Of a stretch of 64,000 nt of DNA, positions 3,683-36,287 are shown piece after piece. The notes beneath the pieces are model-generated. The model searched no databases and was not told where the DNA came from. It was given only the letters and a program-made list of their open reading frames with translations. Made by a program: the position numbers and the translations under genes. The first letter of the stretch is position 1. Each line of letters opens with the position of its first letter. This DNA comes from an uncultured delta proteobacterium (lineage in GTDB: Bacteria > Myxococcota_A > Polyangia > Fen-1088): the NCBI GenBank assembly GCA_963737265.1, contig CAVTRY010000007.1:64001-128000 (forward strand), read 5' to 3'.

Positions 3683-4422
3683 AGAACATCCTGGCCGACG
3701 AGCACCTGCCGGCCCTGCGGCACTTCGCCCGCGAGCGCGTCCTGCTCGCCTTCGATTTCGATGGCACCCTTGCGCCCATCGTGCGCGATCCGAATACCGC
3801 CGCCATGCGGGCCAGGACCCGTGCGCTGCTCGCGCGGGTTGCCGAGCTTTATCCTTGCGTGGTGATTTCCGGGCGCGCGCGCGCAGACGTCGCCAAGAGA
3901 GTGGTAGGCATATCGTTGCGAGCCGTGATCGGCAATCATGGCATGGAGCCTTCCCGCAATCTGCGGGGCGCGCAGTGGCTGGCCACGCTGTGGCAGACGC
4001 AGCTCGCATCCACGTTGCCAAAAATCTCCGGCGTCGTCGTCGAAGACAAAGGGCCGAGCTTGGCCATCCATTATCGACTGGCCCGCTCGCGCGCCGCGGT
4101 CCGCCGCCACATCCTGATCGCCGCCGCCGCCCTGCACGACGCCCGTATCGTCGAAGGCAAGATGGTAGTCAACATCGTACCCGCCGATGCCCCCGACAAA
4201 GGGACCGCCTTGGTCCGTTTGTGCAAGCGCCTAGGCTGCGCGTCCGCCGTCTATATCGGCGACGACGAAAACGACGAAGACGTCTTCGCCTTGGCCAGCG
4301 AAGGCCGCCTCCTCGGTATCCGCGTCGGGCGCTCGCGGCGATCGCAGGCCGCCTATTTTCTACCCGGTCAGACCGACATCGATGCGCTTTTGGCCGAGTT
4401 GGTTGCCCGCCGGGCGGATTAA
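3679..4422 (+). CDS. otsB: Trehalose-6-phosphate phosphatase (HAD)
   Basis: AFDFDGTLAPI, ISGR, GNHGME, DKG, YIGDDENDEDVF. GTG start overlaps the otsA stop (GTGA). Confidence 0.92.
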   Translation: MKNILADEHLPALRHFARERVLLAFDFDGTLAPIVRDPNTAAMRARTRALLARVAELYPCVVISGRARADVAKRVVGISLRAVIGNHGMEPSRNLRGAQWLATLWQTQLASTLPKISGVVVEDKGPSLAIHYRLARSRAAVRRHILIAAAALHDARIVEGKMVVNIVPADAPDKGTALVRLCKRLGCASAVYIGDDENDEDVFALASEGRLLGIRVGRSRRSQAAYFLPGQTDIDALLAELVARRAD

Positions 4423-4439
4423 GTCCTTCAAGCGCTGAA

Positions 4440-4499
4440 CTACTACCTCCGAGATTCTTCGCGTGGCGCTTTCGACCGGACAACCTGCAGCCTGCAGCG
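4440..4499 (+). repeat. Dispersed 30-bp repeat (copy 1) followed by short (CCTGCAG)2
   Basis: CTACTACCTCCGAGATTCTTCGCGTGGCGC matches the reverse complement of 54557-54586 at 28/30. Confidence 0.65.
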
Positions 4500-4532
4500 T
4501 GTGGGTTGCGGGCGAAACCTCGCGCTACGGCA

Positions 4533-5666
4533 CTAGAAAAACGTGTAGACCAGCGTCGCCTCGGTGAGGGTGTCGGCGTGGTCGGCGTACTGGTAGGCGC
4601 CGTATTGGGGCGGATAGGTCGTCCCGGCGGGCAGCGGACGCGGCGCGGGGTTCTCTGTGTATTTGAATGTGAAGCCGAGCCCCAAGCTGAGGCTCTTGTA
4701 CAGGTTGGTGCTGATTCCGATCTTCGCGTTCACGCGCGTGTCCTTGAACGGATCGACGCCATCGCTGCCATCGCTGGCGTTTCTGGCCTTGGCTTCCTTG
4801 TTGAGGTTGAACAAGCCCTCCACACCCGCGGTCATTCCGGTCTGCTGGGTCAGCGTCAGGGTTTCACCCACGAAGGCACGCGCCGAGTGGACGGCGATGC
4901 TGGGATCCGAAGTCTCGAATACAAGGTAGGAGAAGTCGTAGCCAAGCTCCGCGACCACCAGGTGCATCTTGTCTTTGAACAGCTGCCGACTATAGCCCGC
5001 TTGGCCACCGCCGAAGAACATCTTGCCGGCGACCTTGTCCCCGGCTGCCTGAGCGCTGACGTAGAGAGAGTTGTTTTCCGTGAGAAATCGATCGTAGCGA
5101 CCCTTGGTCATCCAGTTGTTGGTGCTGACCACGGTTTCCCGCCGGTAATCGGTGACAATCTGGCCGGTCGAATCTGGGATGGCAACCAAATTACTCGACT
5201 TGCCGTAGGCGTAAACGCCTTCCAGGGTCAGCTTATTCTTGCCCTCCTTGCGCGAGGCATTCACGCCAAAGGTGGCGTTGGTTGTCTGCGAGTTGCCGGA
5301 GCTGAGCAGAAAGCCACCCTTGCTCTGCGCCTTCCACTCAACCGCATTGGCCGCTGCCGCGGCGGCTTTCTCGGCGTCTAGGCGCGCGGCCTCAGCTTTG
5401 GCGGCCTCGGCCTTCGTGGCTTCCGCTTTGGCGGCCTCGGCTTTCGCCGCTTCGGCCTTGGCGGCAGCGCCGGAGTCCACCTCGGCCTTGGGCGACTCGG
5501 TCGATTCGGGCACAGCTTCGGCTTGGGCAAATGCTCGGCTGCTCACCAGCAGAAGCAGGGCCACAAGCACGCTGGTCGAGCTTGGGCAACGTCGCCTCGC
5601 CGTGGAAACGGTTTGCAGGCATTCGGGATTGTGTTCGCGTTCTTTTCTGATTTCTTCCGTGGGCAT
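4533..5666 (-). CDS. DUF481/YdiY-like outer-membrane beta-barrel protein
   Basis: Signal-like hydrophobic stretch ending AFA-Q, (AKAEA)n spacer, LSSGNSQT, amphipathic strands, C-terminal TLVYTFF beta-signal. Start uncertain. Confidence 0.7.
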   Translation of the reverse strand: MPTEEIRKEREHNPECLQTVSTARRRCPSSTSVLVALLLLVSSRAFAQAEAVPESTESPKAEVDSGAAAKAEAAKAEAAKAEATKAEAAKAEAARLDAEKAAAAAANAVEWKAQSKGGFLLSSGNSQTTNATFGVNASRKEGKNKLTLEGVYAYGKSSNLVAIPDSTGQIVTDYRRETVVSTNNWMTKGRYDRFLTENNSLYVSAQAAGDKVAGKMFFGGGQAGYSRQLFKDKMHLVVAELGYDFSYLVFETSDPSIAVHSARAFVGETLTLTQQTGMTAGVEGLFNLNKEAKARNASDGSDGVDPFKDTRVNAKIGISTNLYKSLSLGLGFTFKYTENPAPRPLPAGTTYPPQYGAYQYADHADTLTEATLVYTFF

Positions 5667-5686
5667 GACTTTGTTCGAAGCTCCTA

Positions 5687-6433
5687 TCAATCGATTTGTG
5701 ACGACGGGGCTGTTGCGGCTGTGGCCACCGTCAAGACGCAGGCTCCCTCTTGCCGCCAGACGATTCGAACGGATTGCTCGAAGGGTTGTCGAAACGTGTG
5801 GAGCGGCGTTTTGATGTACGACTCCGCGGAAAGTTTCACATCCATGGGCAACCAACCCACCGGACAGCCAAAAAACATCTTACCGACCAGGTTTACCACA
5901 ATGGAGCGCGTGTCCACCCGCAAACCCAGGCCCAGCAGCTTGAGGACGGCCTCCTTGGCGCTCCACAGGCGGGCGACAACCAGATCGCGCTCCGCTCCCG
6001 CCTGGTCCGCCATCTCCGCCTCGTCGTCGGCGAAAAACTGCCTGACCAGCGCAAGATCGCGCGACTCGATGGTTTCCACGTCCGCCCCGATGTGAACACT
6101 TGGATCCATCGACGAAGCCGCCATCCCGATGTCGCTGCGATGGGAAATCGAAATGGGATACGGCCATCCGCCCTGCCCTTCGATGAGAACGAAGGGCGCA
6201 CCCGACGGCTGGTTGAGCACGCTAATTGTGTCGTCGCGCAAGGCTGGGTCACGCGCCACTTCGCGCACGAGCTGTTTGGCCGCCGCCCGGCCGAGCAGCC
6301 ATTTCCGTCGCCGCGGCAAGAATGCCAGCCCGGCGAGATTCGCCTCCTCGCGCGGACTCAGCAATCCGGGCCACGCCTGGCCCTGCTCCAGCGACGGGTG
6401 CTCGTGGGCATGAACCAGGACATAGCGAAACAT
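5687..6433 (-). CDS. Sfp-type 4'-phosphopantetheinyl transferase
   Basis: GRAAAK, SGAP, SISH, IGADVE and WSAKEAVLK motifs. Start overlaps the PKS stop at 6433. Confidence 0.9.
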   Translation of the reverse strand: MFRYVLVHAHEHPSLEQGQAWPGLLSPREEANLAGLAFLPRRRKWLLGRAAAKQLVREVARDPALRDDTISVLNQPSGAPFVLIEGQGGWPYPISISHRSDIGMAASSMDPSVHIGADVETIESRDLALVRQFFADDEAEMADQAGAERDLVVARLWSAKEAVLKLLGLGLRVDTRSIVVNLVGKMFFGCPVGWLPMDVKLSAESYIKTPLHTFRQPFEQSVRIVWRQEGACVLTVATAATAPSSQID

Positions 6434-9400
6434 CAGCTGGCCACGTTGCGGAACGGGCGCGCTTCTTCCTCGGGCAGGGTGTTCGGCATGCGCGAGGTGC
6501 GGTAGCCCTCAAGCTCGACGTGGACCCTGCCTTCGCCGTCGCGCACGCGGGCGCTGAACGAAAGTCCGCCCGTGCTCGGATGGGCGGTCACCTCGGCGAC
6601 CAGCGGGCCACCGTTCATCGACGGGTCGCGCACGGTCACGCGATCGACCGCCGCGGGCAAGGCAAGCTGGCCGCTGTGGCCGATTTCCCAGACCCCGGCG
6701 GTCTGGAAGCACAGCTCAATGAGACGCGGCCCCACGACGCTGCCGTGGCTCGGGTTGGTCGTGTCGATCGGCAGATTAGCCGTCATGCAGCCAATCACCT
6801 GATTGGGCCCGGCGCTTTCCACGCGGTCGAGCACCCGGTAGGCCGGGCCGTGGAAGAACACGCGATAGATGTCGTCGCGGCCGATCTCGGGATCGGTGCG
6901 ATGGAAGGCCTGCACGCGTTGATCGTCGAGGGCCGATGGCGCAAGCACGACCACGCCCGAGAAATGAAGTTTCTCTTCGGGCTCGCGGCCGACGATGGTT
7001 TGCACCGACGACAGCGTGGTGAAGACGCGTACGCGGCCGTCGGCCGACAATACCGGCCGGGCGCGCACGATGGCGGCGCGCGGTTCGTGGCGGTAGTACT
7101 TCATGGGCGCGAGGAAGCGCAGATTTTCCAAACCCACGACGTGGTGGCTGGGAACCAGCAGCCACCCGGCTTCCGCGAATGTCTCGATTCCCATCACACC
7201 TGGAAGCACGGGAATCCCGTCGATGGCGTGATCGTAGAGGAAGGGCTCGGCCTTGGGATCGAGCTTCATCTCGGCGCTAAGGCCGTCGTGCAGATGAAAG
7301 CTAACCTGGGTAAAGGGCAAGGGCAGCGACCGGTCTTGTGCGCGTGCTTGCAAGCTGCCCTCGATGTCGAGGCCGCCATCCTTGTCCACGGGATCAAGCA
7401 AGATTCCGAGACGGCGGCCGACCACCGCCTCGCCCGAGTAGCCGGCGAGAAGAGCGTTGCGAATGACCGGCAAGCCCTCGGCTGGGTCGAGCATGTCGAT
7501 TCCGGCGCGCTTCATGATCTCGGGGATGCTTCCGCGCGTGGCCATGCCGATGCCGCCCCACGCGGTCCAGTCGAGGGCGATGCCTTGCGAGCCGGGACGC
7601 GCGGCGGCCCACCACGAGACCGTCTTGCACATGAAGTCGTTGCCAGCGCTGTAGTCGGCTTGGCCGGCGTTACCGAAGCGGCCCGCCACCGACGAGAAGA
7701 CGACAATGGCCTTCACGTCCACGTCGCGCGTGGACGCCATCAGGTTGAACAAACCGTCGGCCTTGACGCGAAAGACCAGATCGAATTCCTCGACCGGCTT
7801 GCGATCGAGCGAGCGACTGCGTTCGAGCCCGGCCGCGTGCAGGATCACGTCAACCTTGCCGCTTTGTTCGCGGATGTTTTCCACCACGGCACGGACGGCG
7901 CTTCCGTCCAGGACGTCGACCTGACGATAGAAAGCGCGGCCGCCCGCCTCTTCGACCGAGCGCAGGGCTTCGAGGATGCCCGCCTGCCGTTCGAGGTCGA
8001 AGAGTTTCTCCTCGACCTGCGCTGGCGTGGCGCGGCCCTTCTCGGCCTTCATCGTCTCATACACCTCGCGCTTGGCACCTTCGCGATCCTTGACCACCTT
8101 TTCCAGCAGGGGCCGTTCGCTCTCGGGCGGCATCTGCCGCGCGTTCGAGCAAATAGAAGGTCCCACGCGAAGCGGCCGCTAGATCACGCACGATGGCCAC
8201 GGTGATGGCGCCCGCTCCGCCGGTGACGGCGAACACCGAGTCGGCATCCAGCTTGAACGGCGCCTTGGCGTCGCTGGGAATGGCCGACAGAAGCTCGACG
8301 GCCACGCTCACGCGCAGGCTGCCCTGATAGCCGATTTCGACCGCGCCGGGATCGCGCTCGGTCTCGTCGAGCAACGCGCGCGCCACGACCTCGCTCGGCA
8401 TGTCTACCGGAAAGTCCACCGCCTTGACCATGGCCTCTGGCCGTTCGCGCTTGGCAGCTTTGACGAAACCAACGACGGCGCCGCCCAGTGGATTGCTCGC
8501 ACCGCCCGGCGCGTAGCCATGATGGCCGCCCATGCGGGTCGCGGCGATGAGGAAGGTGCCCGGATTGGCGAACGTGTCGTACAGGCCGCGCACCGCCCCG
8601 TGCAACAGCAGCACGCGATCGTGGTAGAGCTTGCGGAACTCGACCAGATCGATCTCGGCCAGCGATGGGCACGGATCGAGCGAGGCCAGAAAGTACATAC
8701 CAGCGATCGGGCCTGTGGCCGCCCACTCGCGCAGGGCGTGCTCGATCTCGGCGCGTTCGGGCCGCGCATCGATGCGCAGGACCTGGGCGCCCCGTCGTTC
8801 GAGCTCTTCGCACAGCAGCTTTCCCGCACCTTCATAGTCGGCAACCACGACGACGCGACTGCCCTTGTCCAGGCGCACCGGCGTGGCCTTGCACGCCGCC
8901 AGCGGCGGGCGCAGGACCAAGGTCGGCCGGCGAAGCACGCCGCTTTCGAAGGAATTGGCGGGCGAAACGGCCGGCGCCGCAATCGGCGCGGGCGCCGGTG
9001 CAGCCGCGGGCGTGGCTGCGACCGACGGCGCCGCGGCGGCTCCGGCGACATTCTTCTTCACGAACTCGATCACGTGGCGAAGCGTCGGGTAGTCGCGCAG
9101 CTTCAACTCCTCCTGGCGAGGGATATTGAATTCCTCGCGCACCATCGCGAACACCTCGGCTTGCTTGACCGTATCGACGCCGAGATCGGCCTCCAAATCC
9201 AGGTCCAGCTCCAGCATGTCGCTGGGATAGCCGGTCTTCTCGGCCACCATGCCCAGCACCTTTTCGACGATGGCGTCGCCCACCGTCGCTGTGGTCGTGG
9301 CCGTGGCTGTGGTCGTGGCCGTGGCCGTGGCCGTGGCCGGCCCCGTCGCAGTCGCGAGCCCCAGGCTCTGCTCGACATAGCCAATCACGTGGCGAAGCGT

Positions 9401-12400
9401 CGGATAATCGCGCAGCTTCAGGTTCTCCTGGCGCGGGATCTTGAACTCCTCGCGCACCATCGCGAACACCTCGGCCTGTTTGACCGTGTCCACGCCGAGA
9501 TCGGCTTCCAGATCGAGGTCCAGCTCCAGCATGTCACGCGGATAGCCGGTCTTTTCCGCCACCATGCCCAGCACCTTTTCGACGATGGTGTTGTCAGACG
9601 GCGTGGCGGCGACCGCGGCTGGCGTCGCCGCGGAACTAGCGGCAGGCACCGCCGCCACCACCGCTGGGGTCGGCGAAGTCACCCCGGCGCGAACAACGCC
9701 GCTCTCCTCGACATAGCGAACCACGTGGCGAAGAGTCGGGTAGTCGCGCAGCTTCAGGTTGTCCTGGCGAGGAATGGTGAACGTTTCGCGCACCATCGCG
9801 AACACCTCGGCTTGCTTGACGGTGTCGACGCCCAGGTCGGCTTCTAGATCCAGGTCAAGCTCAAGCATGTCGCGCGGGTATCCGGTCTTTTCCGCGACGA
9901 TGCCTAGCACCTTATCGAGAACATCAGCGCCGGTTGAAAGCACCGCCGCGACGGCAATCGGCGCCGTCGCGATGGGCGCCACCGCAGCAGCGGGCAAGGC
10001 CGGAACCGGCGCACCAGCCAGATCCGGCCGGCCACTTTGTACATAACCAACCACGTGACGCAGCGTCGGGTAGTCGCGCAACTTGAGGTTGTCCTGGCGA
10101 GGAATAGCAAACTCCTCGCGCACCATCGCGAATACCTCGGCCTGCTTGACGGTGTCGATGCCGAGATCCGCTTCGAGGTCGAGGTCCGGATCCAGCATGT
10201 CGCGGGGATACCCGGTCTTCTCGGCCACGATGCCGAGCACTTTGTCGAGGACGCTGCCACCCGCGAGAACAATCGGCGCTGCCGCCGTCAGTGTCGGCGC
10301 GGGCGCCGGAAGGGTCGCGGGCGCCGTTGCGGCCAAAGGCACAGTCTTCGCCACCGGTGTCACGGTGGTAGCCACATCCGCAATCGTCGCGCTTGGCCCC
10401 GTGCCAGGCAGCCATTGCGACTGCGCCGGTTCGCGCGCGGGCTGTCCGGCGTCCTTGATGCGTAGGGTTCTCTTGTGCACTTCCAGGCCGGGCGCGGCGT
10501 AGCCGGACACATCGGCCAACCAACGGTCGTAGGTTGCCTGATCGGCGATACGCTGTTCAACGCCCGGCACGCGCCGAAGCAGCGACATGGCGATCTGCGA
10601 TCCGAAGCCGGCGGCCAGGCGCAGGGCGAACTTCACCGGGTAGTGACCGCCGCGCGACAGATTGAGCGTGCCCAGCTCCGGATCGGGCTCGCGGAAATTG
10701 GGCACAGGCGGCACGATCTGCTTTTCCAGGATCTTGACCGCCACGGCGTCCTCGACGCCGACCCCCATGGGATGACCGGTGAAGCCCTTGGTGTTGGCCA
10801 CGACCAAATCATCGGCCGCGGCGCCGAAGGTCTTACGCAAAGCGAACACCTCGGCCGCCGCGCTGCCGCCGCGCGCGGGCGTGTAGGTTTCGTGCGAGAT
10901 GAAGGCCAGCTCCTTGGCCATGGCTTGGCGATGGAGACCGTGCCGACGCTCAACCGTCGACACGAGCTTCTCCATCACGCCTTCGATGTGCGAGACGTCG
11001 AGGCGCGTGCCGTGAAAGGCGCTGTTGGCGAATTCCGTGCCCAGCACCTCGACCACGCCGCGCATGCCGCGTTCGCGCACGGCATCCTCAGACTCGATGA
11101 CCAGCGCGCAAGCACCCATGCCCATCAACATGCCGTGGCGGCGGCGATCGAACGGCAGAGCGGCGCGCTCGACCACGTTCTCGGTCGTGGCGGCGCCCGT
11201 GGCCAAGAAACCCGCGCCCATCCATTCCAGCAGATTGTCCGAGGTCAAATCGTCCGCGCCAATCACGATCACGCGACGGCAACGTCCCATACGGATCCAG
11301 TCTTCGGCCATCCCCACCGCAACCGTGGTCGACGCGCAAGCCGAGTTGACCTGGGTGTTGGGGCCGCGAATACCGAGCATCTCGGCGAACTGGGCATGAC
11401 CCATGGACAGAACGCGGAACATGAAGCCGCGGTCGAATTGAAAGTCGCTCTTCGTTTCGCGGGCTTCGTAGAAGCGGCGGATTTCGCTCACCAGGTTGTC
11501 GTAGCCGGGAAAGGCCGAGGCGAAGATCACCCCGGTTTCGTCCGCCATGGCGAGCGGCAGGCGCCAGCGATCCGGCAAGTAGCTGCCGGTGGTAGTCCGC
11601 CGATAGTGGCGAACGAGCGGGATGCCGGCGTCGCGCAGAGCCTCGATGCCGGCGCCGATAGCGAGCGCGGTGGTGGTATCGAAGACGTCGCTACGCTCTC
11701 TCGACACGCCGAATTCCTCGACCAAATTGAAGGCGCCCTTGCGGCCCGCCAAGCGAATGACCTCGTCGACCGACTGGATAGGTTCCAGGCTGGGCTCGCC
11801 GACTTCGCGCTTGTGCAGACGGACGATGTTCTTGCCCAGCATGCGCTCACGCAACACCGGCGGTACGGGCTCGATGAAGGACTCGCCGGCCAAAATGCGA
11901 TCCACATTGCTGTCGTCGAAGACGCGGCGGCTTTCCCCCGGCAGGCCCAATCCCGCGCCCGAAATCACGATGGAGCCTCCTGTCCGCGAAGGCTCGGGCG
12001 CTGGTGCTCGACCTCCGCTTCCTTGGTAGAGCGACAAACCCTCGTCGAGAAAACGCGCGAACAAACGTCCCAGGCCCTCGTAGTCCGTCGGGCCGGCGGC
12101 GGCGGATGGTAAGCCGGAAGATGAACCCGAAGATGAACCAATCCGATTCGTGCTCATGGCGATGGAAGCTCCATTCGATTGCGTGGGATTGTCGCTCGGG
12201 GCCGCGTTGCGCGCAGCCGGAGCGGCGGTTTGGATCTCTCGAATCCGGGCCAGCAGTTCTGGCCTGGGAATGCCCGCGGCGTACAGGCAGCACATGGCAT
12301 CGTGGAACGAGCGCACGCCGCCCCGCTTGGGGTGATTGGTGGATAGACAAAGGACGTCGTGCTTGTCCTCAAGCACGTTCTCGGCGAGCGCTTGCAGCGC

Positions 12401-15077
12401 GCGCTTGGGGCCGACTTCGACGAAGATGCGCGCGCCCTCGCGGTAGCAGGTTTCGATGCCCTTGACGAACTGGACCGACGACGCCATCTGGTCCGCCAGG
12501 CGGCGACGGATAAGCTCCATGTCGTTTGTCGGATAGAGCTGTCCGTCGATGTTGCCAACCAGCGGGATGCTGGGCGGATTGAGCTGCATCTCGCAGATGG
12601 TTCGGTAGAGGGCATCCGCGGCGGGCGCAACCACCTTGCTGTGGAAGGCGTGCGACACGGGAATGATCTGCGCGGTCATGCCGCGATTGTTGAAGTAGTC
12701 GACCGCGCGATCCACGGCGTCGCTGGCACCGGCAATCACCGTCTGTTTCTTGCTGTTCATGTTGGCCGGCGTAAGATAGCCGCCGATCTCGGGCAAGCGC
12801 CGCACGATCTCGTCCGTGGGACCCAGCACCGAGGCCATCTTGCCCTTGTCGCCGATGGACACCGAAGCCATGGCGCGAGCACGCGCGCTTACCGCCACCA
12901 GCGCCTCGGAGAAATTGATCATGCGGGCGCAGACGGCGGCCGCCCATTCGCCCAGGCTGTGCCCCATCACCATATCGGGGACGACGCCATGCTTCGCCAG
13001 CAAGCGCATGATGGCGATGTCGGTCGCCACCATGGCGGGCTGGCAGATGGTCGTGTCCTTGAGCGCCTCTTCGGCATCTTCCATGGCTGCCGCGTCGTTC
13101 GCGTCCCGATAGACGTAGCTGGTCAGCGGGCGGCCAAGAACGGGAGCCATCGTCCGATCGGCTTCCGCGAAGGTTTCGCGTACGATGGGATCGGGAACAT
13201 CGGCCAGCATGTTGACGTACTGGGATCCCTGGCCGGGAAAGAGAAAGGCAACCTTGCCCGCCGGGCCCTGGCGAAAATGAATGCCCTTGGTTTGCAGGAT
13301 CCGCCATTTTCTGGCGTCGTTCTTGTCGAGGGCGTTCGAGCGCGCTCTCGCACTTCTTCGCCAGCTCTTCCGCCTTCTCAAAAGCGATGACCAAGCGAGT
13401 GTGGGCGCCCAGAAAATCCGCGCCGGGCGGCGTGCCGTCGGGAACCTTGCCGGCCTGGGCATCGGCCAGCGCTTGGACGAGGCGCGCACGTACCGAGCCA
13501 GCATCAGCGCCACCCACGGCAAGCATGTGGCCGAGAAGCGATGGCCGGTTGTCGGTTCCTCCGGAAACGGCGACCGAGCCTGGAGCCAAGGAGGAACCGC
13601 TGTCATAGGAGGCCGGAACCTGCGCCACTGGCTGCCGTTTGCCGATCATGCCGGGCACGTACTCCTCGACCACGACGTGAAAATTCGTACCACCAAAGCC
13701 GAAAGCCGAGACGCCGCAGCGCCGGGGCGCGAACGACGGTCGCTCCCACGGCCGCGCCTTGGTATTCACTTCGAACGGGATCTTGTCGAAGGGAATGGCC
13801 GGGCTGCGCACGTCGCAGTTGATGGACGGCGGCAGGATCTTGTGGTGGCAGGCAAGCACCGCTTTGAGCAGGCCCGCGGCGCCCGCGGCGCTCTTGAGGT
13901 GGCCGATCTGCGACTTGACCGAACCCAACGCGATTTTGTGCTTGATGGGCGTGCCTTCCGCCAACACGCTGGCGGCGCTCTCCATTTCGGACAGGTCGCC
14001 CACCTGGGTCGACGTCCCGTGGCCTTCGAGCAAGGTCATGGTCGCCGGATCGAGGCCGGCACGACGCCACGCCCGTTGGATGGCCAGGCGCTGTCCAATG
14101 GGATTAGGGGCCGTGATGCCCTTACCGCGACCGTCGCTCGCCCCGCCCACGCCGCGAATCACGGCGTAAATCTTGTCGCCGGCTTTTTCCGCGTCCTCCA
14201 GGCGCTTGCACACGAAGAAGGCACCGCCCTCGCCCATGACGAAGCCATTGGCGCCGGCGGCGTAGGGACGCGAGCCATCCGGCGACAAGGCGCCGATCTT
14301 GGAGAATTTGATGAAGGTGGTGGCACCCATGTTGCGGTCCATGCCGCCCGTCAGCGCCACTTCGAAGTGGTGATCGGCCAGGCTGTCCATGGCCGCCTGC
14401 ACGCCCGCCAAGGCCGACGCGCAGGCCGCGTCGGTGGTGAAATTGGGACCGCGCAGGTTGTAAACCGCGGCCACGCGACCGGCGACGATGTTGGTGAGCT
14501 CGCCCGGCATGGTGTCTTCGTTGGTATCCGGCCACCGTCGGTTGATCTCGGCGGAAAAGTCGGCCACCAGGGCAGCGCGTGCCGACTCGGGCAAGACCTT
14601 GAACGCGGCAGTCGCGCCGATGGCGTGCAGGTATTCGGGAAGCGCCAGACGATGCACGGTCTCATAGTGGCGCTCGCCACCCATGGCGTTGCCCACGATG
14701 ACCGCGGTCGATTCGGTGTCGAGTGGGCGGTCGGGATGGCCGGTGTCGCGCAGGGCTTCGCCTGCACACAGCAGTGCCCACTTTTGCCCTTCGTCCATGG
14801 CCATCGCCACGCGCGGTGGGATCTTAAACTTGGTCGAGTCGAACGAAACGCCGCTGACCCAGCCGCCGATTTTCGAATAGGTCTTGCCCGGCGCCTTGGG
14901 ATCGGGATCGTAGTAATCGGCGGCGCTCCAGCGCGCGGGGCTCACCTCGGTGATCGAATTCCTGCCTTCAAGCACGTTGCGCCAGAAACTCGGCGCATCG
15001 GATGAACCGGGCAAAATCGCGCCCACGCCCACAACTGCAATGGCGCGTTCGGCCGGATCCCGTGTCGAACTACTCAT
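6433..15077 (-). CDS. Iterative type I PKS/Pfa-like synthase KS-AT-KS-ACPx4-KR-DH (~2880 aa), split by two +1 frameshifts (~13335, ~8144)
   Basis: KS1 DAACAS/HGTST/GHLKSAAG; AT GHSLG and VSHAFHS (malonyl type); KS2 NSACAS/HETYT/GHPMG; four ACP repeats DLEADLG(I/V)DTVKQ; KR TGGAGAI and ADYSAGN; DH HAIDGIPVLPG. The three ORFs join in domain order. Confidence 0.9.
9288..9337 (-). repeat. Hexamer-type (GCCACG)n repeat encoding an Ala-Thr inter-ACP linker
   Basis: GTGGCC/GTGGTC/GTGGCT tandem units on + strand, encoding ATATATATTTATATTTAT. Confidence 0.6.
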
Positions 15078-15175
15078 CGATCAACTTCCTCCAACTTCGA
15101 TCCTGGTGACAGAACAAGGCAGTCGCAGCCCGGTTCCATACCTCGGTTTACTTCCTTGGCTAGCACGTGAGACTG

Positions 15176-16840
15176 TCACTGCGGCAACGCCGCATCTTGC
15201 TCGACGATGGCCTTGGCAACTATCTCAAGGTCGGCCATGAGCCCCTTGGCCGAGGCGTGAATGGCGCTCGACTGCAAGGCGCGCTCGAATTCCGCCATCG
15301 CCGCGTCGTCGACGGCATCCATGCCGCGAACCAGACGAACGCCACCGGCCAGGACATCGAGCGCGGTGTCGCGCGCGCAGATCCGCGACATGACCTTCAC
15401 CACGCTGGGGGCGAAAAATGGTGCGTACTTTTCCGGCGCACGACCGGCGGCGTAGCGAGCAAAATTGGCCGCGATTTCGGCGCGCGACATGAGCTCGCCA
15501 AGTTGGAAAAGCACGTGCTGATTGCGAGTGAGCCGGCCGACGCGGCAACGTTCGGTGATTTCGAGCACGGCCCTGACGGCCAGGGCGGCGACGTCGGCGC
15601 CGACCTGACTATCTTCGCGGTGCAAGGCTTCGAGCGATTCGGCCATCTTACGATAGAAGCCGCCGCGCTCTTGCAGGTGGATGCGCCATCGGTCGCGCGA
15701 CACCGTCCACTGCATGATTTCGCTCGTTCCCTCGTAAATGGTGGTGATGCGCACGTCGCGACGGATCTGCTCCACCGCGTATTCCTTGGTGTAGCCGTAG
15801 CCACCCATGGCCTGCACTGCTGCGTCCGCGGCGGCGTTGCCCTCCTCGGTGGCGAACAGCTTCACGATGGCGCCCTCGGTTTGCAGCTCGGGTTCGCCCG
15901 CGTCCAGGCGATGTGCGACTTCCTCGATGTAGGCGCGCGCGGCTTCCAGCTTGACCACGTGAGGAACGATGAGCTTGTTCATGTAGCCCTGCTTTTCAGC
16001 CAGGGGCGATCCCGCCTGCACGCGCTCGCGCGCGTAGCGGATGGCCTTGAGCATGGCCGCCACGCCGCCGCCCAAGCCAAAAGCCGCGACCATCAGGCGC
16101 GTAAATCCAAATACCGACTGCGCGTGGATAAGTCCCTTGCCCTCGACGCCGCCAAGAAGGTTTTCCTTGGGAACGAAGACGTCCTCGAAGACGACCGGCG
16201 AGGTGTTCGACGAACGAATGCCGTGCTTGTTTTCATGTTTGCCTGGAATCAGTCCCGGCGTGCCCTTTTCGACCAGGAAGAACGTTGGTCCTTCGGTAGT
16301 CGCGGCCAAGACCGAATAGAGCTGGGCGTAGCCGCCGTTCGAGATGAACTGCTTGGTGCCGCTTATCTTGTAGCCTTTGAGCTCGCCGTTCTCGATCACG
16401 CGCTCGGCCTTGGTGCGGATGGCCGACAGCTCGCTGCCAGCGAGCGGCTCGGTCACGGCGTAGGCGACAATCAACCCCTCGTCGCCTATGCGCCGAAGCC
16501 AGTGCTTGCGCTGTTCCTCGGTAGAACCCACGACGATGGGATCGGTTCCGAGAAAGATGGCCAAGAAGGCCGTCGCGACACCGAGATCCAAGCGTGCCAT
16601 TTCCTCGGACACGCGGTACACGTCGTAGGCCGAACCGCCGAGCCCGCCGAGATCCTCGGGAATGAAGAGCAAATGTAGGCCAATCTCCGGCCCGAGCAGA
16701 TCCTGGATGAGACCGAGCGGGAACTCATCCTTCTCGTCGAGCTCGAGGCGAACCTTGGCCGGCAGCTTCTGCTTGCCAAACGACCCGAGGGTGTCGAGAA
16801 GCATGTTGAGCGATTCTTTGTCGAGTCCTGCGTTCTTCAT
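15176..16840 (-). CDS. Acyl-CoA dehydrogenase family protein with C-terminal extension
   Basis: AYAVTEPLAGS, GTKQFISNG, KHGIRSS, MGGYGY, IYEGTSEI. Co-oriented about 100 bp upstream of the PKS. Confidence 0.92.
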   Translation of the reverse strand: MKNAGLDKESLNMLLDTLGSFGKQKLPAKVRLELDEKDEFPLGLIQDLLGPEIGLHLLFIPEDLGGLGGSAYDVYRVSEEMARLDLGVATAFLAIFLGTDPIVVGSTEEQRKHWLRRIGDEGLIVAYAVTEPLAGSELSAIRTKAERVIENGELKGYKISGTKQFISNGGYAQLYSVLAATTEGPTFFLVEKGTPGLIPGKHENKHGIRSSNTSPVVFEDVFVPKENLLGGVEGKGLIHAQSVFGFTRLMVAAFGLGGGVAAMLKAIRYARERVQAGSPLAEKQGYMNKLIVPHVVKLEAARAYIEEVAHRLDAGEPELQTEGAIVKLFATEEGNAAADAAVQAMGGYGYTKEYAVEQIRRDVRITTIYEGTSEIMQWTVSRDRWRIHLQERGGFYRKMAESLEALHREDSQVGADVAALAVRAVLEITERCRVGRLTRNQHVLFQLGELMSRAEIAANFARYAAGRAPEKYAPFFAPSVVKVMSRICARDTALDVLAGGVRLVRGMDAVDDAAMAEFERALQSSAIHASAKGLMADLEIVAKAIVEQDAALPQ

Positions 16841-17111
16841 TTCGTGTCTTGTCTCCTGCACGGATCTTCGTCGAAAGGCAATCCCCGCCTGCGCGGCGGA
16901 CGATGCTGGCACAAGCTGGCCTAGAATCAAAACAGGGATCGACGGCGCAATCCGTCGACCCCTGCTTCGCGATACAACTACCTGTAATTATTAGTCACGA
17001 TCTGACGCGTCCGGATTGCAGACTTTGCCCTGGTCTAACCCGGATCCGTGCTGCGCGGGAAACTCCGCGAAATCGAAACACCACGCAGCCCCGTCGACTC
17101 GGCCTGGGCCG

Positions 17112-17537
17112 CTATTTCCAGCGGCTGTCCCCGCCTTCCTTTTCCTTTTCCTTTTCCTTCTTGGCCTTCTCCGCGGCTTTCTCCTTTTCGCGCTGAGCCT
17201 GGGCCTTTTTTGCCTCGGCCTGGGCCTTTTTATCCTTCTCTTTGATCTTTTTGAGCGCCAGCTCCGCCGCCTTTTCCTCGTCGTGTCGACGTTTGGCTGC
17301 GCACTCGGGCGGCTCGCAGTCGTTCTCGCACGCGCACTTGAGCTTCGCCTTGCTCACCCTGTTGCAGTGGCACTTGTCGTCCTTGTCGCGGTAGCAACCG
17401 CACGCATTGATCTCCGTGGCAGCGGGTGGAGGCTCGGCTTCGACCTGGGAATCGCCCTTCTTTGCTTTCGCCTGGGAAAGAGGAGCGAAGAATGTCACCA
17501 GGCCAAGCACCATCATTGTGGAAAGCAGCAGCCGCAT
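17112..17537 (-). CDS. Secreted Cys-rich, Lys/Glu-rich hypothetical protein
   Basis: Signal peptide MRLLLSTMMVLGLVTFFAPLSQA, 8-Cys cluster, charged tail; AGGAG RBS. Confidence 0.65.
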   Translation of the reverse strand: MRLLLSTMMVLGLVTFFAPLSQAKAKKGDSQVEAEPPPAATEINACGCYRDKDDKCHCNRVSKAKLKCACENDCEPPECAAKRRHDEEKAAELALKKIKEKDKKAQAEAKKAQAQREKEKAAEKAKKEKEKEKEGGDSRWK

Positions 17538-17660
17538 GGCGTTCTCCTTTGCAGGCCAATTACCACGGGTCTGGCGCCCGGTGCAATGGGCAGCGACGCC
17601 CTTTTGCATCTTGCGCCAACGAGCGGCCGGCATCATGATCCGCGTTTTGGGGAATCATCC

Positions 17661-17855
17661 ATGGGCCAAAGTCTGATGTCGCGCGACAAATCCGAAGCAA
17701 AGAAGAAAGGGCTCTTCGCTGTCTCGGCCTGGGCGGGCGCCGGTGCGCTGGTTCTCTACCACGCCCCATTCCTAGGGCTGCTGGCCGGCGGCGCGGCGGC
17801 GTACTTGACCTACCGCTGGTTCATGTTCCGCGCCAGGCGGGGAATGCGTTTCTAG
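17661..17855 (+). CDS. Small two-TM membrane protein
   Basis: 64 aa, two hydrophobic helices, basic C-terminus (FMFRARRGMRF). Confidence 0.55.
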   Translation: MGQSLMSRDKSEAKKKGLFAVSAWAGAGALVLYHAPFLGLLAGGAAAYLTYRWFMFRARRGMRF

Positions 17856-17910: not shown

Positions 17911-18546
17911 TCATGGCTGCATGAACAGCGGGGGCCCCGTTGGCGCCTGCTCTTCGCCGGACGGGCTACCCGATTGCGTGGTCCTCGCCACGCGGTGGAA
18001 CGTGACGGGAAAATCGACTTGCACGCCCTTGCCCTCGAAGGTCGGGAATCGGATGTTCTGAACGACGTGGCGGATGCAGCGCTCGGCGTCACCTGAAGCG
18101 CCATTCAAACGCACCAGGCTGGGCTTGCCGCTTGGATCCGCCTCGAAGGAGATGGCCACCATCGGATCTTCAGACGACGGCGAGAAGCAAGCAGCGACCG
18201 ACGAGACAGCACCCTGCAGTGCCCGGTTCAGCACATCTCGGGTAAGCCCGTGGGGATCGCCGTTTAAGGTGCCGACCGGACCGCTCTGCGGCCCGGCCAC
18301 CGGCTGCACAGCGGCCGACGCGGGATCGTCGGCGATTACCACGGGCGCGATGGGCGTTCCACCTGAGGTTCTGAGCTCGATAGGCTTGGCTGTAGATGTC
18401 GGCTCTGACGCGACGGCGGTATTGCCCCTCGGTAGCGGCGGAGGTCGATTGGAACTACCGCTGCACGCGACAACGCCTGCAAGCGCAACAAACACCAGCC
18501 TGGCGCCGTGCGCGGCCGAACCGCTATGTGACACGTGGCTGGACAT
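17911..18546 (-). CDS. Lipoprotein with TonB-C/AgmX-PglI-like C-terminal domain
   Basis: Lipobox VVAC, Pro-rich linker, VAACF...AERCIRHVVQNIRFPTF...VDFPVTF resembling the GltG C-terminal fold. Confidence 0.6.
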   Translation of the reverse strand: MSSHVSHSGSAAHGARLVFVALAGVVACSGSSNRPPPLPRGNTAVASEPTSTAKPIELRTSGGTPIAPVVIADDPASAAVQPVAGPQSGPVGTLNGDPHGLTRDVLNRALQGAVSSVAACFSPSSEDPMVAISFEADPSGKPSLVRLNGASGDAERCIRHVVQNIRFPTFEGKGVQVDFPVTFHRVARTTQSGSPSGEEQAPTGPPLFMQP

Positions 18547-18573
18547 CCCCGGTGGTTTCCTCGACAGATCCGC

Positions 18574-18596
18574 AGTGTATCTTGATGTCGGCTGCT
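18574..18596 (-). promoter_or_regulatory. -10 (TACACT) and spacer half of a sigma70-like promoter split by the IS; -35 (TTCACA) now at 20395-20400
   Basis: The reconstructed empty site reads TTCACA-N17-TACACT on the minus strand, ending 27 bp before the lipoprotein ATG. Confidence 0.55.
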
Positions 18597-20377
18597 GGGT
18601 GGGTTGCACGGGCCCGGGTTCTGGTGGCGGCTGAAGGGCCCGTTTTCCGAGCGCGCTACGGGACGTTGATTCGAGGGCGAGTTGGTGGGTGGCGCGCTCG
18701 GAAAACGGGCCCTGGCGTGGTTCCCAAAATGGAAGGAATTTGCGTAGGAAGGAGATTCATGGCGATGCCTTCAGCTATCCAAGAAGGAGGCACCGCCATG
18801 AGACGACCCAATGTCGCAGGATTGACTTTGCAGGCTCTGGAACCGCTCGTCCAGAAATTGAACGAGCTCGAACAACAAGCGCTGCGCGGCGATGGCATGT
18901 CCGTGGCGACGCTGGGGGCTGCGCTGGCGACGACGTTGTCGACTGTGGGCCGAAGAGCCATGGAACTGGTCATCCAACAGGCCGCGCGGGCTCATGGACC
19001 TGGACAAGTCTGCACCTGTGGAAAGCAAGCCAAATCCAGAGGATTTGAGAGAACGACGTTCGTGGCGAGATTCGGTCGGGTGGAAGCCGATCGTCGACGC
19101 AACGAGTGTGTTTGCGGCCGCAGCTGGTTTGCCTTTGACGAGGCTTGGGGCCTTCCTGCGGGCGAATACGCCGACGATGTGCGCGAGGCGACCGAAAGGC
19201 TGGCCTGCCGGATGGGCAGCTTCGACGAGGCCGTCGAGGAACTCCGTTACCTGTGGGCCGTGGCTCCCGACGGGAGCACCGCCAAGCGATGGGTGACCGA
19301 AGATGGAACGCGTGCCGCCCAGGCCGCCCAGGCCGATGCCGAAGCCCATTGGAGCAAGTACGACCAACAGGTGCACGCCCAGGCTCGCGGTGACCTGTGT
19401 GCGCCCAAGCGTACAGAGGGCTTCGGCGTGATCGAGGTTGACGGTGTTCACGTCCTGACCTGGAAACCAGGACAAGAGCCACGGCGCAAAGCGACCGACG
19501 AGGCGAAGGCGCCGTCTGCGGTCCCGAACGCCACACAGTCGGCAGCGGTCAGCGAGACCGGCGAACGTGCCCTTCGCCATCAGGCGCCGAGTACCCTGTC
19601 CGAGGTCGCTGGCTCGCCCATGGGGCCCACCGGGCGCTCACCACGGGTCGCCGGCCGCGAGGTGTGCATGGGACTGACCTACCTCGGGGAACACGCCTGC
19701 GAGGAGAGCCCCGGCCGAGGCGTCTTGCTGGACCGGCGCTACGTCGCAACACTCAACGACCGAGACGGCTTTTGGCACAAGCTGCACGCCGCCGCCACGA
19801 CCCAGGGCGTGCTGTCTCGCCAGAAGGTAGTCCGTGTCTCCGACGGTGGCGCTTACTTCATCGAGCACAGCGACGAGATCTTCTGCGACCAGCCGTTGCT
19901 TGGCATCCTCGACTGCCAGCACGCCAAGCAGCATGTCTGGGAGGCAGGTCACAAGGTCGTGCCGGACAAGAAAGCAGTGCCATCTTGGGTCTTGCCACGT
20001 ACCGAGGCCATCATGGACGGCAAGGTCGACCAGGTGCTCTCGGGCCTCGCCCAAGAGCGGCAGCGTTCCACCGGCAGCCAAGCGGTCAAAGCCCTCGACG
20101 ACTTGACCGGCTACCTGAGCCGCCACAAGCACATGATGGACTACCCCGCATACCACGCTGCCGGCTATCCGCTGGCCAGTGCCGCCATCGAAAGCACCAA
20201 CAAGCGCCTCGTCGGCCGGCGCTGCAAGCAAGGCGGCATGCTCTGGAGCGAGGTCGGCCTTGAAGCCATGGTCGCGCTCAGGGTTGCCTTCTACAACCCG
20301 GGGGCCTGGCTCGCCCTCTGGCCTCACACCCAAGCCCAGCCGCCCAGTCATGAAACCCGGACCCGTGCAACCCACCC
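18597..20377 (+). mobile_element. Insertion sequence, prokaryotic Mutator-like (ISKra4/ISLre2-type), 1781 bp
   Basis: 24-bp terminal IRs (18597-18620, 20354-20377; 23/24, GGGTGGGTTGCACGGGYCCGGGTT). Flanked by a perfect 17-bp direct repeat TCTTGATGTCGGCTGCT (18580-18596, 20378-20394). Confidence 0.92.
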
Positions 20378-20399
20378 TCTTGATGTCGGCTGCTTGTGA
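18798..20399 (+). CDS. DDE transposase (Mutator-like/UPF0236)
   Basis: [21 protein letters not shown] (D-x2-H signature), [19 protein letters not shown]; N-terminal Cys pairs; AGGAGG RBS. Confidence 0.88.
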
Positions 20400-34043: not shown

Positions 34044-36287
34044 CTATTCGCCCGCAGCGCCGGCCGTGAAGTTGAACGGATACGAGACGATGACGATACC
34101 ACCGCCCATGGGCTTCGGGAACTCCCAGCGACGAACCGCCTGAACGACGCAGTTTTCGACGCGGATGTTACTCATGGTCGAGCTCTGCAGAACCGAAGCA
34201 ATGACCTGTCCGGTGGCTGCGATCGTGAACTGAACCGAGACACGGCCGTTGAGATCAGGCTTCTTGGTGAGCTCCGACTCGTAGCAGTACTTCACCTCGT
34301 TAATGTGGCGCCGAATGATACGGCGGATGATTTCCTTGTCGAGCGAACCGCGCACGTTCGCCTGGCCAGGAATGACGTCTGGAGCCCTGGCCCGGCGTCC
34401 ACCGAGTCCGCCAGCGCCGCGGCCGTAGCCGGAACCGTTGCCGCCGCCACCGCCCTTGCCAATCGTGCCGAAGTTACCGAGACCGATCGTGCCTTCTCCG
34501 GTACCACCGCCACCGGTTCCCGTTCCGACCAGACCGAGACCGCCGACGCCGTAGGCCTCGCCGATTTCGTTGCCGATGAGCCCGCCCAAGACGTTGACGG
34601 AGTCAGAGCCTGCCGCCGTGTCGCGACCGAAGATCGACGCCAGGTGAGAGCCTTCCGACATCTTGAGAACGCCGAGAATACCTGCGTTCTTCGCATTCTC
34701 CTCGGCCAGCTTCTTCGCCAGGTGCGGATCGGGATTGTCCTTTGGCCCCTTGAGGCCATAGAGGCCCTCCTTGTTCTTGGAGGTCTTCTTGCCCATCTTG
34801 CCTTCTTCGCCCTTGTGGCGCTTGCCCTTCCCTCCCTGCTCGTCGGGACCCTTCTTCTTGAGCCATTCGGGGATCTCTTCTTCCTTTTCCTCCGGCGGCT
34901 TGATGAGGAAGTTCACGAACCGACTGTCCGCATTGAAGAGATCGAGAGACAGCGACTTCGGATCCGGCGGAACCGAGAAAATCATGAGCAAGAAAAGAGC
35001 GAGCGCCGCCGCCGTTCCGACAGTGTAGGCTTGCTCGCTCCAGCGCCAAATGAGAAACGGCACCGGCACCGCCCGCGGCCTTGCCGTGGCACTTACGAAA
35101 AACGTCGTGACGCCACAGTCGATCCTGGCTCGACCGCGATCGCCGAGAGAAAAACTGGGACCGCGCTGCTGTACGAATTGTTGCAGCGGAACCGAATGCC
35201 CGTCGAGGTGAACTTCGCCCGACATGCTAGGCGTCACGTTCACCAAGAAGTCTGCGCCCGTGGTCGACACCAAGGAGAACGCAGACGTTCCGATGAACTC
35301 CGGCCCAACTGGCGTATCCGCCGTGACATCCGAGCCGACGACAAAGTTCGGGTTCGATTTGCTACGCCGCTTGAGCCCCATGTAAACGAGTGCGATACCG
35401 GCGGCAATGCCACCAAACACGACAAAATCCAGGGCCGGCGATTGGTGCGCCCACTGGAAGTTCTTGGCCTCATTACCTGCATTCAGATATGCATCATACC
35501 TGGTCTTTTCTTGGCCAGCATTGATGATGGTGACGAAGAAGGTGATGAGTGCGACGAGCACGAAGGCAATACCAGCCGCAATGAAAGCCTTGGATTGGCC
35601 CGCGGTGCTCTTGCCGGTGGGATCGGTGAGGTACCGAGTGTTGATGACGATCCCGCGATAAATGGACTGGACCTCGATGGCCTTGCTGCCATCCATCACT
35701 TCGACTTCGGCGCCCACGTGGCTCGGCGCGCCGAAGGTCGGGGCAGCAAAGCCCGTCTGCGGAGCTGGAGCCGCCACTGCAACCGGCGGCGCAAACTGCG
35801 AACCTTGCGGCACTGATTGTTGCGGAACGACTTGCGCAGGCGGCGCGGCCTGCGCCGGAGGAACAGCCGCCGCACCTGCCGGAACGAAATGCATTGTGGA
35901 CGCAAACTGGGCGGCGGGACGGGTGGTCTGAGCCGGCACCGCGACCGGCGCTGGCGTGGCTTCCGTGCCCGCGCTGCCAGTCGAAAACGCCACAACTACT
36001 CGCACATCGCCAAAGTAGACTTGGTCGCCAGACTTGAGAATCGCCTTGTTGATTCTCTCCCCGTTGACCAGCGTTCCCCGTGTCGAGCCGAGATCGATGA
36101 GCTGAACCTCTCCCGGTCCCGTCACCTCGACGACAGCGTGCATGCGCGACACCGTTTCGTCGTCTAGTCGGAGATGCGAGGAAGCGAGCTTACCGATTTT
36201 GATCACGGCCTCGTTCAGGGTCTCTTCTCGCACCAGCTGATCCCCTTTGAAGATCTGAAATTTGATGGGGATTGGGACGTTGGCCAT
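34044..36287 (-). CDS. gltG: GltG/PglI-like FHA - TM - Gly-rich - TonB C-terminal protein
   Basis: FHA (KIGK...VSRMHA...DLGSTRGT), Gly-rich stalk, GSLDKEIIRRII...CYE...WEFPKP...VSYPF. Confidence 0.85.
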   Translation of the reverse strand: MANVPIPIKFQIFKGDQLVREETLNEAVIKIGKLASSHLRLDDETVSRMHAVVEVTGPGEVQLIDLGSTRGTLVNGERINKAILKSGDQVYFGDVRVVVAFSTGSAGTEATPAPVAVPAQTTRPAAQFASTMHFVPAGAAAVPPAQAAPPAQVVPQQSVPQGSQFAPPVAVAAPAPQTGFAAPTFGAPSHVGAEVEVMDGSKAIEVQSIYRGIVINTRYLTDPTGKSTAGQSKAFIAAGIAFVLVALITFFVTIINAGQEKTRYDAYLNAGNEAKNFQWAHQSPALDFVVFGGIAAGIALVYMGLKRRSKSNPNFVVGSDVTADTPVGPEFIGTSAFSLVSTTGADFLVNVTPSMSGEVHLDGHSVPLQQFVQQRGPSFSLGDRGRARIDCGVTTFFVSATARPRAVPVPFLIWRWSEQAYTVGTAAALALFLLMIFSVPPDPKSLSLDLFNADSRFVNFLIKPPEEKEEEIPEWLKKKGPDEQGGKGKRHKGEEGKMGKKTSKNKEGLYGLKGPKDNPDPHLAKKLAEENAKNAGILGVLKMSEGSHLASIFGRDTAAGSDSVNVLGGLIGNEIGEAYGVGGLGLVGTGTGGGGTGEGTIGLGNFGTIGKGGGGGNGSGYGRGAGGLGGRRARAPDVIPGQANVRGSLDKEIIRRIIRRHINEVKYCYESELTKKPDLNGRVSVQFTIAATGQVIASVLQSSTMSNIRVENCVVQAVRRWEFPKPMGGGIVIVSYPFNFTAGAAGE

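Follow-up and report, generated by a model that had tools for sequence, protein, structure and literature searches.

We analysed a stretch of 64,000 nucleotides, hereafter the window, from an uncultured delta proteobacterium (GenBank assembly GCA_963737265.1, contig CAVTRY010000007.1, positions 64,001 to 128,000 of the forward strand), in which a megasynthase gene on the minus strand encodes four tandem acyl carrier protein (ACP) domains. Judged by their sequences and modelled fold, these four are real carrier domains with threonine (Thr) at the acceptor position, the start of helix II, and to our knowledge serine (Ser) is the phosphopantetheine acceptor in every characterised carrier protein. 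The Thr is probably phosphopantetheinylated by a dedicated phosphopantetheinyl transferase (PPTase) encoded together with the synthase, as sequence comparisons and a model of the complex suggest. The synthase, PfaA-like and iterative, falls into the uncharacterised 'Type R secondary lipid synthase' class; the Type R cluster is already known, and the new element, on the sequences compared here, is the Thr at the acceptor position across its ACPs.

Threonine at the acceptor position of the carrier domains

The carrier domains were read from the minus-strand open reading frame (ORF) 8057..13606, in the translation of which all four repeats read DLEADLG(I/V)D-T-VKQAEVFAMVRE, as the initial annotation of the window had reported. 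The positions it gave for the Thr codons (10151, 9821, 9485 and 9170) are the low coordinates of the respective codons, and its observation that no Ser lies nearby is also correct, since three of the repeats are without Ser in the core and the only one in the fourth precedes the Thr by 17 residues (YPSDML). The four domains are placed as follows.

9998..10246, minus strand: ACP1, Thr codon ACC at 10153-10151
9668..9916, minus strand: ACP2, Thr codon ACC at 9823-9821
9332..9580, minus strand: ACP3, Thr codon ACG at 9487-9485
9017..9265, minus strand: ACP4, Thr codon ACG at 9172-9170; the repeat used for the structure and complex models

Pairwise identity among the repeats is 73-83%, and PF00550 (PP-binding) matched them as four stretches with a total of 96.8 bits against a cut-off of 20.8. 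Comparison with solved ACPs by phmmer aligned the Thr with the phosphopantetheine Ser of PigH (5y08, DLGVDSI) and of PfACP (2fq0, DLGADSL). The AlphaFold2 model, for which 81 family members served as input, reached a predicted local distance difference test (pLDDT) value of 83.8 and has helices at residues 2-11, 32-46 and 62-75, so that helix II of the ACP fold begins at Thr32, and Foldseek superposed it on holo-PfACP (3gzl) with a template modelling score of about 0.76 and a root-mean-square deviation of 1.6 A. The Ser acceptor expected of a carrier protein is the feature that is missing, with Thr found instead in 4/4 repeats of the window and in 293/293 related repeats. As the 16 other PP-binding matches in the same genome all have Ser and Thr occurs in these four only, the presence of Thr here goes beyond chance.

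Threonine across the Type R family

Of 8000 proteins scored in the word-indexed search, 6288 reached E <= 1e-3, and the best 120 were examined for the residue at the acceptor position. Thr alone was carried by 119 of these 120 homologues, at 605 sites. The exception, P0086, belongs to the canonical Pfa type and has Ser at seven sites, in DSIKRVEIL repeats. Among species-representative genomes at least 576 stretches were confirmed and 80 loci, selected in part with the pattern [VI]DTVKQAE, were kept. These loci originate from at least eight phyla, namely Myxococcota/'delta proteobacteria', Acidobacteriota, Chloroflexota, Elusimicrobiota, Actinomycetota (an Amycolatopsis isolate, L039), Gemmatimonadales, Leptospiraceae and one metagenome-assembled genome labelled Thermoplasmatota.

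Across the 80 loci the segment EADLG(I/V)DTVKQAE is nearly invariant, and Thr stands in every one of the 293 ACP repeats that have a residue at that column. It is encoded by ACG (133), ACC (129), ACA (16) and ACT (14), with more than one codon used in 35 of the 80 loci, and Ser could be reached from Thr codons by one mutation, yet none was seen in these loci. No Ser-type carrier was detected within 10 kb of the 80 loci with a hidden Markov model (HMM) trained on 13 carriers of Ser type from the source genome; it recovered 265 domains, all of them with Thr. The initial annotation, framed around a single gene, was right about the Thr itself; the residue is the rule across the large Type R family. 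On the contig labelled as a Thermoplasmatota archaeon (L101), an ORF of 3741 aa encodes a synthase with Thr-ACPs and the PPTase in one chain, and its occurrence on an archaeon-binned contig stems from horizontal transfer or else from faulty binning.

Serine-bearing relatives and a second threonine family

Three tiers of ACP were distinguished within the phylum: Type R (Thr), a family with fused PPTase (Thr) and canonical Pfa (DSIKRVEIL). The second Thr-bearing megasynthase family, from the same phylum, reads ELEADLGIDTVKQAEIM in its ACPs, and here the PPTase forms the C-terminal domain of the synthase, recognised by Pfam in L130 and L131 and by the family HMM in L132. In L130 the synthase is followed by a carboxyltransferase gene (acetyl-CoA carboxylase-like).

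Metagenomes were scanned for D-S(TCN)-V-K-Q-A-E, which covered the TCN codons of Ser. The scan gave 122 matches. Seven of these, spread over five loci, belong to genuine ACPs with the sequence DLG(I/V)DSVKQAE; the remaining 115 lay outside an ACP context and were discarded as chance. Natural Ser variants (DLGxDSVKQAE) in Type R-like synthases, which come with related PPTases and could serve as natural controls for the specificity for Thr or Ser, are rare, and their Ser, located at the identical position of the same enzyme type, indicates that the Thr is homologous to the attachment residue and does not mark a dead site. The members of the second family and the Ser variants that were located are listed below.

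L130 (G013:C1), 7691-17017: second-family synthase with ELEADLGIDTVKQAEIM ACPs and fused PPTase
L131 (G272:C1), 4359-15704: second-family synthase with ELEADLGIDTVKQAEIM ACPs and fused PPTase
L171, 370-8700, minus strand: 2777 aa, KS-AT-KS-ACP2-KR with Ser ACPs, 40-44% identical to the intact Type R homologue P0038 (KS, ketosynthase; AT, acyltransferase; KR, ketoreductase)
L148, 9142-13012, minus strand: Ser variant, ending in ACP-KR-DH and then the PPTase (DH, dehydratase)
L145, 5053-10030, minus strand: Ser variant, AT-ACP-KR and then the PPTase

A dedicated phosphopantetheinyl transferase

The gene next to the synthase on its 3' side encodes the enzyme that would be expected to act on these carriers.

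5687..6433, minus strand: Sfp-type PPTase of 248 aa, PF01648 at 48.1 bits with a cut-off of 25

Its ATG overlaps the TGA of the synthase (TGATG; AGCTGATG), and the translational coupling claimed for it in the initial annotation is thus upheld at the level of sequence, the start lying inside the stop codon of the synthase. A homologue of the PPTase is present in 68 of the 80 loci, in 67 of them on the same strand and downstream, and it was found in 63 of the 67 loci having at least 6 kb beyond the last ACP. The gene lies up to 8.5 kb away in Acidobacteria, and in 6/80 loci the PPTase is part of an ORF longer than 600 aa.

The profile of the PPTase family aligned with Sfp (1qr0/4mrt) at an E-value of 9e-18, covering Sfp residues 11-175 with the catalytic motifs in register, and the Sfp motifs SISH, GxDxE and WxxKExxxK are retained. 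Residues D118, E120, W157, K160, E161 and K165, which align to GIDIE and WSMKESFIK of Sfp, are invariant in 42 PPTase sequences, and H98 is likewise invariant. Scored with the family HMM, three fused PPTases reached 106-131 bits, PPTases from genomes with Ser-type Pfa synthases 37-57 bits, and the Sfp-like enzyme and AcpS of the source genome 50 and 20 bits, respectively. A quick tree with a small outgroup of seven sequences put the 45 Thr-linked PPTases on one side of a branch with a Shimodaira-Hasegawa-like approximate likelihood ratio test (SH-aLRT) support of 98 and the seven others on the opposite side, and by these comparisons the Thr-linked PPTases are a lineage separate from other PPTases. 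E123, R125 and D174 are candidate specificity positions, being at least 87% conserved in the Thr-linked PPTases and different in the enzymes beside Ser variants (n=2), which retain the lineage marks W157 and G170.

The complex of PPTase, ACP4, coenzyme A (CoA) and Mg was modelled with a score of 0.73 against 0.45 for the best control, where the mark is one reached by 58/80 solved complexes and 2/110 mismatched pairs in a calibration set without ligands. Three runs had at least 91% of their contacts in common and a partner pLDDT of at least 74. In the model E161 contacts Thr32, E120 and W157 contact Val33, and helix II of the ACP is covered by residues 125-133 and 170-176 of the PPTase. As solved complexes of Sfp with a peptidyl carrier protein (PCP) and of AcpS with ACP exist, the good score may reflect likeness to them.

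Domains and reading frames of the synthase

The synthase was delineated as a single gene from three overlapping minus-strand ORFs (12369..15077, 8057..13606 and 6433..8166), and its parts other than the ACPs are given here.

6433..15077, minus strand: PfaA-like 'Type R' megasynthase gene, KS-AT-KS-ACP4-KR-DH by Pfam domains, about 2880 codons
13656..15047, minus strand: KS1, ketosynthase with Cys-His-His (PF00109, PF02801, PF16197; residues 11-474 of ORF 12369..15077)
12353..13246, minus strand: AT, acyltransferase with GHSLGE (PF00698; residues 121-418 of P0001)
10562..11980, minus strand: KS2, second ketosynthase-like domain (partial match to PF00109, residues 630-840)
7555..8938, minus strand: KR, ketoreductase (PF08659, residues 66-204 of ORF 6433..8166), crossing frameshift 2, its N-terminal part delimited by alignment to P0038
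6478..7290, minus strand: DH, polyketide synthase-type dehydratase (PF21089 and PF14765, residues 293-563 of ORF 6433..8166)
13335..13336, minus strand: frameshift 1, extra A in GCTCGA[A]CGC, by tblastn against P0038 and contigs of relatives without the base
8144..8145, minus strand: frameshift 2, extra A in GCTCGA[A]CGC, by tblastn against P0038 and an X1 contig without the base

The intact homologue P0038 (2873 aa) aligned to the window by tblastn in collinear pieces at 15065-13254, 13336-8144 and 8145-6439, in three frames, each piece being 93-96% identical and free of stops. P0038, scored in place of the frameshifted copy of the window, matched TIGR02813 (PfaA) marginally, at 1025.4 against a cut-off of 1010.1. 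The KS1 motifs DAACAS, EGHGTST and KSQIGH and the DH motif HAIDGIPVLP were found in P0038, the AT motif GHSLGE is encoded at 12964-12947, and KS2, a type of domain named 'CLF' in the description of the cluster by Shulse & Allen (PMC3098273), retains its Cys (NSACAS) and both His, motifs that were found again in homologues. In 82 full-length homologues the catalytic motifs were recovered for AT in 82, KR in 81, the KS1 Cys in 80, DH in 72 and the KS2 Cys in 68, counts obtained with simple regular expressions in which misses may be motif variants. Since the catalytic motifs of all five domains are kept in 68-82 of the 82 homologues, the synthase needs a carrier, and from its sequence it looks active.

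Both frameshifts consist of a single additional A inside the identical 10-mer. A read-derived contig of run X1 that spans 7914-8310 is without the base at 8144 and has no other differences, and frameshift 2 is an assembly error. At 13335, where X1 cover does not reach, contigs of relatives from runs X2 and X3 have one base fewer, and frameshift 1 is probably an assembly error too. The shared 10-mer suggests a context-specific basecalling or assembly error. A methylation-type systematic error at this motif throughout the genome was also considered; genome-wide counts of 175 for GCTCGAACGC vs 383 for GCTCGACGC and an ORF-gain test gave it no clear support, and the claim was dropped. One further X1 contig has a 3-base insertion (CGC) at window position 10148, adjoining the ACP1 Thr codon; this is probably a mis-laid contig that stems from another repeat or strain.

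Proposed mechanism and alternative explanations

An invariant hydroxyl at the acceptor position, an otherwise intact synthase, the lack of any further carrier and a PPTase that is private or fused are most simply accounted for if the Thr is phosphopantetheinylated. Loading of Thr by the coupled PPTase, as proposed in the initial annotation, is the best-supported reading in view of the invariance, the linked or fused PPTase, the lack of a Ser carrier, the Ser orthologues and the modelled E161-Thr32 contact, the modification itself being something we infer. The private PPTase would bind helix II of each ACP and its Glu/Asp-Mg site would move 4'-phosphopantetheine from CoA onto the Thr hydroxyl, and the holo-ACPs would shuttle malonyl and growing acyl thioesters among KS, AT, KS2, KR, DH and the acyl-CoA dehydrogenase encoded upstream. 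Such loading might be exclusive to the private enzyme. The possible reasons for using Thr include insulation from other PPTases, a stabler phosphodiester or a restraint on the arm. A broader proposal, which we put forward tentatively, is that O-phosphopantetheinyl-threonine is a widespread natural modification made by this PPTase lineage only, and that ACP and PPTase constitute an orthogonal pair in which E123, R125 and D174 act as the switch and housekeeping AcpS and Sfp-type enzymes do not load the carrier; in that case the phosphodiester of the secondary alcohol might resist removal or beta-elimination.

Several points weigh against the loading of Thr. Phosphopantetheine on Thr was not found reported for any protein in full-text literature searches. 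E. coli ACP(S36T), in which Ser is likewise replaced by Thr at the acceptor position, cannot be modified and is blocked in function (PMC3340395), so that acceptance of a secondary alcohol would be new PPTase chemistry; the mutant differs from the Type R family in that Thr is the conserved native state in the latter, and it is at the same time the sole outside support for the idea of insulation. A radical change in the active site of the PPTase was sought and none was seen, the catalytic residues looking ordinary, and the sole candidates for explaining Thr acceptance are E123, R125 and D174, a lead from two comparison sequences. The PPTase had no match in four loci despite 8-9 kb of downstream sequence. 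The selection of loci partly by pattern makes that sample lean to Thr; the set of the best 120 proteins is less biased and gave the same result. Finally, the assembled gene carries the two frameshifts.

As an alternative, the initial annotation had suggested that the ACPs are non-catalytic, which in its full form would make the Thr domains unmodified spacer or docking modules, with the chemistry performed on a trans carrier such as the housekeeping AcpP and the PPTase serving that carrier or another target. The unmodified E. coli mutant (PMC3340395) and the Ser-type free ACPs encoded elsewhere in the genome would agree with this, but we consider it unlikely, as an inert spacer would not hold Thr invariant with four codons in use, nor keep helix II nearly invariant. 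The tandem ACPs moreover occupy the exact carrier position of PfaA, the 80 loci are without a Ser carrier within 10 kb, some members have synthase and PPTase in one polypeptide, and orthologues of the same architecture have Ser. It is decidedly improbable that the Thr hydroxyl bears some other CoA- or nucleotide-derived arm, or acyl groups as direct oxoesters. Phosphopantetheine on Thr is without known precedent, and the ACPs of citrate lyase and malonate decarboxylase do carry a different prosthetic group, but by its superfamily the linked enzyme is a 4'-phosphopantetheinyl transferase, in which the CoA/Mg motifs known from Sfp are present, and the Ser orthologues indicate an ordinary modification. 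The chemistry of KS, AT and acyl-CoA dehydrogenase, as in fatty acid and polyketide synthases, also requires thioesters on a long arm.

Attachment of phosphopantetheine to a different residue of the domain might be imagined from the equally invariant hydroxyls of T11, Y13 and T61, but is very improbable, since the domain has no conserved Ser and the complex model sets Thr32, and none of these three, at the catalytic Glu; EKTGYP, which contains T11 and Y13, is just as conserved in Ser-type Pfa ACPs and hence offers no replacement site. The chance that the feature is an artefact or belongs to a decaying pseudogene of the source genome, for which the two frameshifts could be cited, seems next to negligible, as each consists of a single surplus A within a shared 10-mer, a read-derived contig with no further differences lacks the surplus base at 8144, the frame pieces are stop-free and 93-96% identical to an intact homologue, and the Thr is family-wide. 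Phosphopantetheinylation of the Thr by the dedicated PPTase is the account that we prefer as the most probable.

Relation to known systems

The Type R cluster was described by Shulse & Allen 2011 (PLoS One 6:e20146; PMC3098273) as one pfaA homologue with the order KS-MAT-CLF-ACP(3-6)-KR and a downstream PPTase gene, occurring in Koribacter, Solibacter, Elusimicrobium and Roseiflexus (Acidobacteria, Chloroflexi and Elusimicrobia), with a PPTase that has the motifs P1a x(G/D)xP and P1b' hShxH and no P0 motif. The window resembles it in the order of KS, AT, KS-like, four PP-binding and KR domains, the DH being additional, and in the PPTase placed directly downstream, whose start codon overlaps the stop of the synthase. 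The PPTase family alignment has conserved GAP and SISH; the absence of P0 from it was judged by eye. Same-family hits were labelled Candidatus Koribacter (P0115) and Elusimicrobium minutum (L035); the names Solibacter and Roseiflexus were not among the family hits. The paper differs from the present analysis in that it reports no product, its main text contains 'threonine' 0 times, and its passages on the cluster name neither a DH nor an upstream acyl-CoA dehydrogenase. Follow-ups on Type R beyond this paper were not found by full-text literature searches.

Likeness to canonical PfaA (TIGR02813) extends to the first half of the ACP, where VAEKTGYPxDMLxLDxDLEADLG(I/V)D is homologous, and to the location of the tandem ACPs between condensing and reducing domains. 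PfaA has Ser followed by IKRVEIL, whereas the window has Thr followed by VKQAE(V/M/T)F and a second KS in addition; the contrast with Pfa ACPs (DSIKRVE) drawn in the initial annotation is confirmed by P0086 and the canonical Pfa repeats, which read DSIKRVEIL. In comparison with the Sfp-PCP and AcpS-ACP systems (4mrt, 1qr0, 1f80), the motifs are in register with Sfp and the model brings the first residue of helix II to the active site, but the Thr acceptor would be a secondary alcohol and the separate PPTase lineage has a GLRxDTR motif of its own. A polyketide synthase of Stigmatella aurantiaca Sg a15 (AIS92916.1, P0071) also has five Thr-ACPs (DTVKQVE, DTITQIE) followed by KR, and differs in its split architecture and length of 1269 aa. 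This protein may come from the gene cluster of the polyene dawenol (Osswald et al. 2014).

Gene neighbourhood

Upstream of the synthase lies a gene for a redox enzyme that recurs in the family.

15176..16930, minus strand: acyl-CoA dehydrogenase with Pfam ACAD N, M and C domains, ending 98 bp upstream of the synthase

A homologue of the dehydrogenase is encoded upstream on the same strand in 54/80 loci (E from 1e-65 to 0, across phyla), which puts it among the best-conserved parts of the operon, and it is missing chiefly at loci with short upstream sequence and in Elusimicrobiota. It may act on ACP-bound acyl chains and so substitute for an enoyl reductase domain. The DUF481 outer-membrane-type gene located 3' of the PPTase (4533-5855, minus strand) was considered and set aside as not part of the system, with 0/80 loci having it. 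PfaB/C/D-like genes were not seen among the 16 window ORFs scanned. The minus-strand region 22395-44103 encodes very large TPR-repeat proteins (2546, 808, 620, 1262 and 614 aa), and 34044-36287 codes for an FHA-TonB_C protein; both are apparently unrelated to the synthase. The plus-strand ORFs 18396-20399 (667 aa) and 17016-17855 (279 aa) had no Pfam match.

Significance of a probable threonine acceptor

The Ser acceptor has been taken as a defining and universal feature of carrier proteins, and annotation rules as well as engineering tools depend on it. The Thr family has thousands of members, which occur in bacteria of soil, peat and sludge from the Acidobacteriota, Chloroflexota, Myxococcota, Elusimicrobiota, Actinomycetota and others, and its cultured hosts include the Type R strains of Shulse & Allen and the Amycolatopsis isolate. 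If the Thr is used as proposed here, the chemistry of PPTases would be broader than known and a ready orthogonal pair of tag and enzyme would be at hand for protein labelling and pathway engineering, and the finding might help to account for an abundant class of synthases, Type R, that has no known product.

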